From IMG/VR virus record IMGVR_UViG_2740892233_000026: a DNA stretch of 56,035 nucleotides, one strand, 5' to 3'. Source of the stretch: a virus (taxonomy: Duplodnaviria; Heunggongvirae; Uroviricota; Caudoviricetes). Every line of letters starts with the position of its first letter. Position 1 is the stretch's first letter. Positions 50,353-51,296 of the stretch are shown one piece after another. The notes beneath the pieces were generated by a model. That model was not told where the DNA came from. It searched no databases and saw only the letters and a list, made by a program, of their open reading frames with translations. The position numbers were made by a program, and so were the translations under genes.

Positions 50353-50838
50353 CTACCTGATATTACTGCTACTGTTGCATGTTACCGTGTTTCCAAATCC
50401 TGAATTGCAGTTTGTATATGTGTCAACGCGTGTTGGGTAAGGTTGAGTTATAACAGGCTGGCGCGCTTTTTGCTCGATCGCTTGCATTGTGTTTACAGCC
50501 TGATAATTCAATAAAGCCTGCTGGAATGCTTGGCTTTGTGCTATTTGTTGGGCTTGTTCTTGGCTTTGTAATTGAACATAAAGATTCTGAAGCTCAAGTC
50601 TTGCCTGTGCGTCACTTATCTTGCCTTCATCGACACCTTTCCCGAGCATCTTTGCAGCAAGGACATACAGCTTAGGTGTTGGTGCTGATGCCATGCGTGA
50701 GTCGTTCTTCACACTGGCATCAAGGCAATTAGCCATATCGCTAAGCTTTTGATAGCGTTGTTCGCAACTTGCTTGATAGTCACTTACTTTTGCGCATCCA
50801 ACCAGCAGAAGCGGGATAATTAACAGTGATTTTTTCAT
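50353..50838 (-). CDS. lipoprotein, Q-rich, unknown function (candidate lysogenic-conversion or exclusion gene)
   Basis: ATG 50838 with AAGGAG 8 nt upstream; signal peptide and lipobox MKKSLLIIPLLLVGC; downstream of and co-oriented with Mnt-like gene. Confidence 0.65.
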   Translation of the reverse strand: MKKSLLIIPLLLVGCAKVSDYQASCEQRYQKLSDMANCLDASVKNDSRMASAPTPKLYVLAAKMLGKGVDEGKISDAQARLELQNLYVQLQSQEQAQQIAQSQAFQQALLNYQAVNTMQAIEQKARQPVITQPYPTRVDTYTNCNSGFGNTVTCNSSSNIR

Positions 50839-50908
50839 ATGGTTAACTCTCCTTAGTTTTTCACAGGATATCATGAAGGCAATGCCATTTTAGCCGGAAA
50901 CTAGATTT

Positions 50909-51175
50909 CTATGTTTCCTTTTTATTATTGCTATACATGGTCTTAAGCGTTTCAAAAACCATTTTCTTAACCATATCAGATTGTTGTTCTGCCATACGCT
51001 CTGCATCATCAATGTAAACGGATGCAGAGCTTTGTTTAGCCAACGATTCTTCAATCGCTGCAATTATCTCTGAGTTCAGCGACCTGTTATTCATCTTCGC
51101 GCGCTGTTTAATTTTCGCGTGGAGTTCATGCGGAAGTCTCAAGTGAAACTGCGCCTCGTCGTATTTGCTGTACAT
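50909..51175 (-). CDS. mnt: Mnt-like ribbon-helix-helix repressor
   Basis: FHLRLPHELHAKIKQRAKMNNRSLNSEIIAAIEESL...DDAERMAEQQSDMVKKMVFETLKTMY parallels P22 Mnt (FNFRMPMEVREKLKFRAEANGRSMNSELLQIV...NDAERLADEQSELVKKMVFDTLKDLY). Confidence 0.8.
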   Translation of the reverse strand: MYSKYDEAQFHLRLPHELHAKIKQRAKMNNRSLNSEIIAAIEESLAKQSSASVYIDDAERMAEQQSDMVKKMVFETLKTMYSNNKKET

Positions 51176-51248
51176 CCTTGATGCCTCACCAGTTGGGTGG
51201 AATGGCATCGTAACCTACTGGATAAATACTCAATAGTACCATTTCGGT

Positions 51249-51271
51249 ATGCAATCACATCATGGTTGCAT
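51249..51271. promoter_or_regulatory. candidate operator palindrome ATGCAA-11 bp-TTGCAT in mnt/tailspike intergenic region
   Basis: 6-bp inverted arms ~25 bp upstream of tailspike start. Confidence 0.3.
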
Positions 51272-51296
51272 CATATCATTCTTCTGGAGCAATGAA

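Follow-up and report, generated by a model that had tools for sequence, protein, structure and literature searches.

A reduced P22-type ant moron with mnt and a PHROG 6067 lipoprotein gene in a prophage of Escherichia coli O26:H11

The IMG/VR virus record IMGVR_UViG_2740892233_000026 (56,035 nt, referred to here as the window) contains a prophage of the P22-like (Lederbergvirus) type with E. coli O26:H11 as its host, and at positions 50353-51296 it carries two leftwards-transcribed genes in the interval between gene 16 and the tailspike gene, where P22 has its immI genes. One encodes a Mnt-family repressor and the other a lipoprotein. The scenario that we favor, and regard as reasonably probable, is that this is a reduced ant moron in a prophage at tRNA-Arg, in which a functional Mnt has been kept together with its ancestral promoter/operator module and is accompanied by an independently mobile lipoprotein moron of family PHROG 6067. 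With arc, sar and ant absent, the ancestral divergent promoter/operator module would now abut the tailspike gene. Mnt would bind a TACC-N5-GGTA dyad that is the positional homologue of P22 Omnt, and, once bound, it may dampen a Pant-like promoter directed rightward into the tailspike gene while favoring its own leftward promoter. The lipoprotein would be exported, lipidated and probably located at the outer membrane facing the periplasm, and would be transcribed from the prophage through a weak extended -10 promoter of its own, possibly with additional read-through from Pmnt. The ejection proteins of P22-like phages assemble in the periplasm, and our preferred guess is that the lipoprotein is an envelope-acting factor that hinders DNA delivery by superinfecting phages of this group.

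Mnt and the interval upstream of the tailspike gene

An initial annotation, made from the nucleotide sequence by itself, placed a Mnt homologue in the immI position, and both Mnt domains are indeed found in this protein, in the slot between genes 16 and 9. The open reading frame (ORF) extends from 50909 to 51208 on the minus strand, and the second ATG, at 51175, is the likely start, giving a product of 88 aa; the PGAP start in E. coli O26:H11 strain 11368 is identical. The N-terminal part is a ribbon-helix-helix domain of the Arc/MetJ type (Pfam PF03869, 1.1e-14; PDB 1mnt, 5.7e-19) and the C-terminal part a coiled-coil tetramerisation domain (Repressor_Mnt PF11423, 3.9e-12; PDB 1qey, 1.2e-6). 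The protein shares 45-47% identity with P22 Mnt, and its recognition strand is QFHLRL where that of P22 Mnt is HFNFRM. Among related prophages that likewise have no ant, the ratio of nonsynonymous to synonymous substitution rates (dN/dS) of mnt is 0-0.27 and mostly 0-0.15, which reflects purifying selection, so that Mnt does not have the character of a decaying remnant.

No match to P22 Arc or Ant was found by tblastn in the 121 bp between mnt and the tailspike ATG, and the absence of arc and ant noted at the outset thus stands for immI. It does not extend to the window as a whole, since a leftwards ORF in the early-left region (22929-23627, minus strand) contains the P22 antirepressor N-terminal domain (PF10547, 1.9e-53, in two stretches) together with ORF11CD3, although the P22_AR_C domain is absent. 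Mnt of the window is not placed to repress ant in the manner of P22, as this sole ORF with an Ant domain is 27 kb off and there is no Mnt-type dyad, and hence no copy of the operator, near it. We also note that the antirepressor domain is present twice in this ORF, across runs of ten Ns at approximately 23351-23360 and 23604-23613 that flank a repeated segment of ~240 bp, and we suspect that the duplication arose artificially, in the scaffolding of a draft assembly.

The spacer between mnt and the tailspike gene is homologous to the annotated Pmnt/Pant/Oarc/Omnt block of P22 as far as approximately position 51254. Leftward hexamers TTGAGT (51233-51228) and TACGAT (51212-51207), separated by 15 nt, can be read directly from the sequence, as can a rightward ATGGCA (51202-51207) followed by TG-G-ATAAAT (51219-51227). 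Just downstream of the Pant-like -10 is a candidate operator, AGTACCATTTCGGTATG, whose central dyad, TACC-N5-GGTA, occupies 51237-51249. At the position of Omnt the P22 sequence is AGGTCCAC-G-GTGGACCT, and that of the window is AGTACCAT-T-TCGGTATG.

In the ~85 loci compared, the sequence of the dyad at the Omnt position varies in step with that of the Mnt beta-strand contacting the major groove. The P22 type, with recognition strand HFNFR, has the dyad GGTCCAC-G-GTGGACC; the Gally type (QFNLR, ~20 loci) has AGACCAC-N-GTGGTCT; the type to which the window belongs (QFHLR, ~45 loci) has TACC-N5-GGTA, which is extended to a perfect CATACC-N5-GGTATG in locus L019; and locus L010, with QFHLT, has TAC-N7-GTA. 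This covariation, together with the positional homology to P22 Omnt, makes TACC-N5-GGTA the best candidate for the Mnt operator and the most likely binding site. Conservation of the operator within a type was considered as further evidence and dropped, being no higher than at neighboring bases. The dyad occurs twice in the 56 kb, compared with 0.24 occurrences expected, and a count of two was reached in 1 of 100 shuffles. The second exact copy lies inside gene 16 (49618-49630, TACCAATATGGTA, with 5-bp arms), and could be either a chance occurrence or a second Mnt site.

That Mnt may act upstream of the tailspike gene, as had been proposed, fits the homology of this spacer with P22 Pant, Pmnt and Omnt, but the site originally put forward was a different one, the palindrome ATGCAA-N11-TTGCAT, and we think it very unlikely that Mnt binds there to control a tailspike promoter. 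The palindrome (ATGCAATCA-N5-TGGTTGCAT) is certainly present; it ends 25 nt before the tailspike ATG, is placed between the Pant-like promoter and the tailspike start, can be extended to 9-nt arms with one G-T, and is kept in Sf101, IME10 and most loci of the window type. However, it is missing from VSe13 and from loci L019 and L026, all of which have the same QFHLRL type of recognition strand, and it is situated just outside the block homologous to P22 Omnt. Inverted repeats of this quality are also at chance level, as dinucleotide shuffles of the spacer contain at least one exact 6+6 inverted repeat in 40% of cases and a 9-nt arm with at most one mismatch in 17%. Natural T-to-C and C-to-T variants in the arms, each opposite a G, maintain pairing (as G-U or G-C) only in plus strand RNA, which argues for an RNA structure and not a DNA dyad; folding compared with shuffled sequences gives z = -2.0 for the plus strand and z = -0.7 for the other. 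Rather than a Mnt site, the palindrome is more probably a chance feature or a small hairpin formed in the tailspike leader or the late transcript.

A leftward promoter-like sequence, CTGACA-17-AATGAT, overlaps the tailspike start codon (51275-51303, minus strand), and if real would give an RNA that is antisense to the tailspike leader and runs into mnt. The scan that yielded it performs at chance level overall, with 2 found and 2.7 expected. Such an RNA would recall the antisense RNA STnc6030, which is expressed in lysogens of prophage BTP1 (PMC7067206).

The PHROG 6067 lipoprotein

The gene downstream of mnt was described initially as coding for a glutamine-rich lipoprotein of 161 aa, on the same strand as mnt and with a strong Shine-Dalgarno sequence, and this description holds in each respect. 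The signal peptide and lipobox, MKKSLLIIPLLLVG-C, have the cleavage motif LLVG-C with alanine at position +2 and match the pattern [LVI][ASTVI][GAS]C, in which the cysteine is invariant in 38 homologues. The Shine-Dalgarno sequence, AAGGAGAG, is 8-10 nt ahead of the ATG, and 14 of the 20 glutamines fall within residues 90-135. In E. coli the residue after the lipid-carrying cysteine sets the sorting of lipoproteins (the +2 rule), and the alanine at this position suggests that the protein, once lipidated, is probably sorted to the outer membrane, facing the periplasm. Invariant residues in the homologue alignment include C15 (the lipid anchor), C25, C38 and C154, of which C25 and C38 belong to the helical N-domain, and the C-terminal part has a Cys loop. 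An AlphaFold2 model has a helical domain at residues 20-95, with a predicted local distance difference test score (pLDDT) of 82-90, followed by a long glutamine-rich helix and a disordered C-terminal tail. The gene is under purifying selection, with dN/dS of 0.03-0.14.

The lipoprotein had been called an orphan, which is not the case. It matches phrog_6067, a family with no assigned function, over its full length (E = 1.2e-110, residues 1-161 on profile positions 1-161), and there are 94 clusters of close homologues, every one named hypothetical, from E. coli, Citrobacter, Serratia, Klebsiella aerogenes, Cronobacter, Yersinia, Pectobacterium, Morganella, Providencia and Tatumella. Five phage records contain it, those of Gally, vB_EcoP-720R6 and VSe13 at 96-97% identity and those of Proteus phage Brookers and Salmonella phage MS2 LVA at ~55%. 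A profile search of 1.84 billion representatives adds 248 clusters of remote relatives, which are mostly lipoproteins of ~130 aa that have in common the N-domain and a C-terminal C-x3-G-x4-C loop, and which have no Pfam domain either. Some of these are in ordinary chromosomal contexts, such as near uvrC/pgsA or between dsbB and minCDE, and others are in integrase islands or phages. Remote homologues P0101, P0097, P0110 and P0106 (loci L092, L093, L094 and L096) belong to a broad proteobacterial family of ~130-aa lipoproteins.

The profile and structure searches that had been suggested for this protein lead to an uncharacterised family and do not give a function. There is no match in Pfam or PADLOC and no meaningful one in NCBIfam, a profile search of PDB is uninformative, and structure searches return no analog. 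A sub-threshold NCBIfam match of the glutamine-rich helix to GspK was rejected as spurious. A literature search with the RefSeq protein accession gave no result, and an Rfam scan of 50000-51600 gave just sub-threshold snoRNA noise.

The genomic context of the lipoprotein gene was analyzed mainly in IMG/VR loci, in which the protein is 97-100% identical; a scan of species-representative genomes gave 5 loci only. In 82 of the 89 loci the lipoprotein stop is no more than 91 nt from the end of a convergent ORF with 300 codons or more, so that the lipoprotein gene is the last gene against gene 16 and occupies the slot of P22 sieA, in agreement with the position first assigned to it. P22-type sieA is absent from every locus with this lipoprotein. 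In contrast to this constant downstream side the upstream neighbor varies, and may be mnt itself (the situation in the window), mnt and then orf59a, a complete ant-arc-mnt set, an opposite-strand gene for either a second lipoprotein (the Gally type) or a small ORF product (VSe13), or the tailspike gene directly, without mnt. The gene has the distribution of a moron, being absent in Sf101 and IME10 and present in Gally, VSe13 and 80 IMG/VR loci, in several neighborhoods.

Only 20-40 nt of DNA upstream of the lipoprotein ATG are conserved, and these include an extended -10-like motif, TG-n-TATCCT. The TG is present in 9 of 10 upstream lineages and the TAT core of TG-n-TAT..CT is largely kept, including in homologues with 48-60% protein identity. 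Because the upstream neighbor varies and this short conserved segment contains a -10-like motif, a promoter belonging to the lipoprotein gene itself is probable, in line with P22 sieA, which is likewise served by one of its own. Terminator searches gave no prediction for the 70 nt that separate mnt from the lipoprotein gene, for the sequence beyond the lipoprotein stop or for any other part of 50200-51450, and transcription from Pmnt may therefore read through and contribute to expression of the lipoprotein; a weak hairpin at 50896-50918 overlaps the mnt stop.

Transcription data are available for a closely related copy. Misson et al. (2023; PMC9928086) carried out RNA-seq of E. coli strain LF82, whose prophage Gally carries a 97%-identical lipoprotein, GALLYPH_13. 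The values in their S1 Table are log2(fpkm+5), where fpkm is fragments per kilobase per million, for two replicates. GALLYPH_13 is at 6.29/5.96 in stationary phase in lysogeny broth (LB), 10.3/10.3 after 1 h in macrophages and 8.7/8.5 after 6 h (PMC9928086). The Gally gene 16 homologue is at background in all conditions (3.6-4.2), and mnt is at background in LB (3.9/3.6) and rises to ~9 at 1 h and 8.5/8.3 at 6 h, while the tailspike gene goes from 3.9 in LB to 6.7 and then 7.8 (PMC9928086). In normalised LB counts the lipoprotein is at 70 compared with a prophage median of 15.6, about 4.5-fold and just below the 5-fold moron cut-off of the authors, and it is up ~16-fold after 1 h in macrophages relative to LB; a reading of ~8 is given for it under two further conditions in that table, with definitions that are unverified (PMC9928086).

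These data indicate that transcription of the lipoprotein gene from the Gally prophage depends on neither the late operon nor mnt, and that the whole Gally moron responds to host-associated conditions. The initial annotation had expected the lipoprotein to be on in the lysogen through co-expression with mnt; the 97%-identical copy is transcribed in a lysogen, but co-expression with mnt is probably not the source of this transcription, given the variable upstream genes and the LB values of Gally mnt. Tailspike RNA in Gally was considered as proof of a Pant-like promoter and is kept as suggestive only, there being a highly expressed gene on the same strand upstream. We also note that GALLYPH_14 of Gally (locus L002, 4120-4539), which is present in ~9 further IMG/VR loci, encodes a second, unrelated lipoprotein of 139 aa, lies in opposite orientation in the interval from the PHROG 6067 lipoprotein gene to mnt, and is the most strongly macrophage-induced Gally gene in LF82 (~11 log2(fpkm+5)).

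Alternative explanations and significance

A number of observations weigh against the scenario of a functional Mnt module next to an exclusion lipoprotein. Both promoter assignments in the spacer are weak, with degenerate rightward hexamers whose -35 matches at 4/6 positions and with only 15 nt between the leftward hexamers, and a consensus promoter scan called neither of them. The core of the dyad is just 4+4 bp, and about 8 of the ~45 loci of the window type have a one-base change in its right half. The link to exclusion is one of position, as the lipoprotein resembles neither SieA nor the mature Cor and Bor proteins and has no PADLOC match and no structural analog. Expression in lysogens of the O26 window prophage is extrapolated by analogy from the Gally copy, and the Gally Mnt and spacer belong to a different subtype than those of the window. 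Moreover, Gally mnt is at background in LB and its deletion is without phenotype in a single assay, that of macrophage survival (PMC9928086), and the role of Mnt without ant may therefore be minor. These expression and deletion data, the loss of the target gene ant and the poor promoter hexamers would all fit an alternative in which Mnt is an evolutionary leftover that is only autoregulating or is without consequence, with the tailspike gene expressed solely by late-operon read-through. We consider this unlikely, as dozens of prophages without ant have an intact Mnt that is maintained by purifying selection (dN/dS mostly <0.15), the dyad at the operator position changes together with the recognition strand, and the Gally tailspike gene is transcribed while the upstream late genes are silent, which points to some local rightward promoter. 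It is quite improbable that the leftward mnt-lipoprotein transcript acts mainly as RNA, antisense into gene 16, in the way that STnc6030 of BTP1 gives immunity to the homologous phage. The lack of a predicted terminator beyond the lipoprotein stop is in keeping with such an RNA, but the two ORFs code for proteins and purifying selection on each is strong, and the Gally gene 16 homologue is at background, with the proviso that whether per-gene counts detect antisense transcripts was not checked.

For the lipoprotein, superinfection exclusion was the role suggested from the outset, and it is a guess drawn from the position of the gene, the comparisons with SieA, PADLOC and known structures being negative; a role in host adaptation is almost equally likely. 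According to the latter possibility, which we regard as plausible if somewhat short of an even chance, the lipoprotein is an envelope moron of the host-adaptation or virulence type that is switched on in the macrophage vacuole or in cell-culture medium, with a logic like that of lambda Bor. It would account for the increase of the Gally homologue from ~6.1 to 10.3 log2(fpkm+5) by 1 h of macrophage infection, in parallel with the neighboring second lipoprotein, and the presence of remote relatives in ordinary chromosomal neighborhoods suggests a cellular rather than an anti-phage role of the fold. However, deletion of Gally leaves macrophage survival of LF82 unchanged (PMC9928086), and strict linkage to the sieA slot beside the ejection-protein genes is what would be expected of an exclusion gene. 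Taken further, the exclusion role that we prefer could mean that PHROG 6067 lipoproteins are a new periplasm-facing exclusion class that replaces SieA and blocks assembly of the ejection conduit from the outer-membrane side, as part of a large unnamed family of ~130-aa proteobacterial proteins with a disulfide-bonded helical domain and the C-x3-G-x4-C loop. We offer this as speculation and find it rather doubtful.

At present the locus counts as a mosaic accessory region of a type already documented, and it does not demonstrate a new mechanism. Two leads from it are the most useful, namely the lipoprotein, which is a candidate for a substitute of SieA or for an envelope factor induced in macrophages, and the series of covarying Mnt/operator pairs. 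If the lipoprotein is an exclusion or envelope factor, P22-like prophages, which are common in pathogenic E. coli, would have solved the SieA problem a second time by unrelated means, and there would be a first way into a wide lipoprotein family that has no name. The Mnt/operator pairs are a natural series for studies of ribbon-helix-helix specificity, and a Mnt without ant offers a simple test of Mnt control over tailspike expression.

Gene organization and relationship to other phages

The region 50300-51400 is 100% identical to the genome of strain 11368, in which the prophage adjoins tRNA-Arg and intS, and to many other O26 genomes. At least 80% of it is present in 106 of 5426 complete E. 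coli genomes and part of it in 377, so that ~2% have exactly the window arrangement and 7% have part of it. Gene 16 is the final gene of the late operon ahead of the moron and is convergent with the lipoprotein gene, with a gap of 14 nt (Table 1). The tailspike has a P22-type head-binding domain (60% identity to P22 gp9 residues 1-158) and an unrelated beta-helix receptor-binding part.

Table 1. Features of the ant moron and its flanking genes in the window.
Feature	Coordinates	Strand	Basis
Gene 16 homologue (ejection/DNA-transfer protein)	48491-50338	+	74% identity to P22 gp16 over 611 aa; synteny in strain 11368
Lipoprotein gene, 161 aa	50353-50838	-	phrog_6067 match; lipobox
mnt-lipoprotein spacer, 70 nt	50839-50908	-	Shine-Dalgarno AAGGAG 50854-50849; -10-like motif 50873-50865
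Mnt-family repressor, 88 aa	50909-51175	-	PF03869, PF11423; PDB 1mnt, 1qey
Putative divergent promoter region	51202-51233	both	Aligned with annotated P22 Pant/Pmnt
Candidate Mnt operator	51235-51251		Position of P22 Omnt; covariation with Mnt beta-strand
ATGCAA-N11-TTGCAT palindrome	51249-51271	+	Inverted repeat read from sequence
Tailspike gene	51297-53420	+	Pfam Head_binding 2e-67, Beta_helix
Acyltransferase, between tailspike and integrase genes	53491-54633	+	Acyl_transf_3
Integrase	54878-56035	-	ORF/domain assignment

The slot between the tailspike and integrase genes is the usual home of O-antigen-modifying lysogenic-conversion genes, and Sf101 has O-acyltransferase B in the slot that corresponds to the acyltransferase gene of the window. 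At the other end, approximately positions 1-16000 of the window are perhaps outside the P22-like prophage proper; this follows from the annotation of strain 11368 (NC_013361.1, 3304000-3320400) and was not checked in the window. That segment of the 11368 genome contains IS3 and IS66 elements, a second integrase gene with an internal stop and a gene for a protein with an HsdR N-terminal domain, and by correspondence the left end of the window would be a composite island beside the prophage.

The moron of the window is a member of a described class, in which the hypervariable ant moron is reduced to mnt. Villafane et al. (2008; PMC2629481) gave the name 'ant moron' to the interval between genes 16 and 9 and distinguished ten types in sixteen genomes, among which ST64T, ST104 and Para1 have only mnt and a gene whose function is not known. 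The layout described in the initial annotation was thus already on record, and these authors raised, as a speculation, an effect of Mnt and Arc on transcription that enters the tailspike gene (PMC2629481).

Relative to the P22 ant moron (sieA, orf59a, mnt, arc, sar and ant), the window has the same slot, the same leftward mnt, a spacer homologous to Pmnt/Pant/Omnt, and a leftward accessory gene abutting gene 16. It differs in the absence of arc, sar, ant and orf59a, in the presence of an unrelated lipoprotein gene in place of sieA, and in the recognition strand and operator. In P22, moreover, the mnt transcript is stopped by a terminator after orf59a and sieA is read from a promoter of its own, whereas in the window no terminator is predicted after mnt. 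In Sf101 and IME10, with ~96.6% DNA identity to the window over mnt and the tailspike start, mnt is directly beside the tailspike gene with nothing else in the interval, and in ST64T-type phages the accompanying gene is a different one with no tblastn match to the window lipoprotein. Gally, VSe13 and vB_EcoP-720R6 have the same lipoprotein (96-97% aa identity) against a gene 16 homologue, but unlike the window, Gally and VSe13 have a small opposite-strand gene between it and mnt, and the Gally Mnt is of the P22-like subtype, with 76% identity to P22 Mnt.

SieA is always located between genes 16 and 9 (PMC10883804), and P22 SieA shares with the lipoprotein its position, its orientation and the logic of expression from the prophage. 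SieA is, however, a multi-pass inner-membrane protein, and there is no sequence relationship between the two by tblastn or by hhalign against P22 SieA (type A; hhalign probability 0.2%). When the lipoprotein is aligned with Cor and Bor using hhalign, only the signal peptide and lipobox correspond, the mature parts are unrelated, and its helical, glutamine-rich architecture is without a structural match. In their general character, nonetheless, Cor of HK022 and phi80, Bor of lambda and Llp of T5 resemble it, all being small phage lipoprotein morons that are expressed in lysogens.

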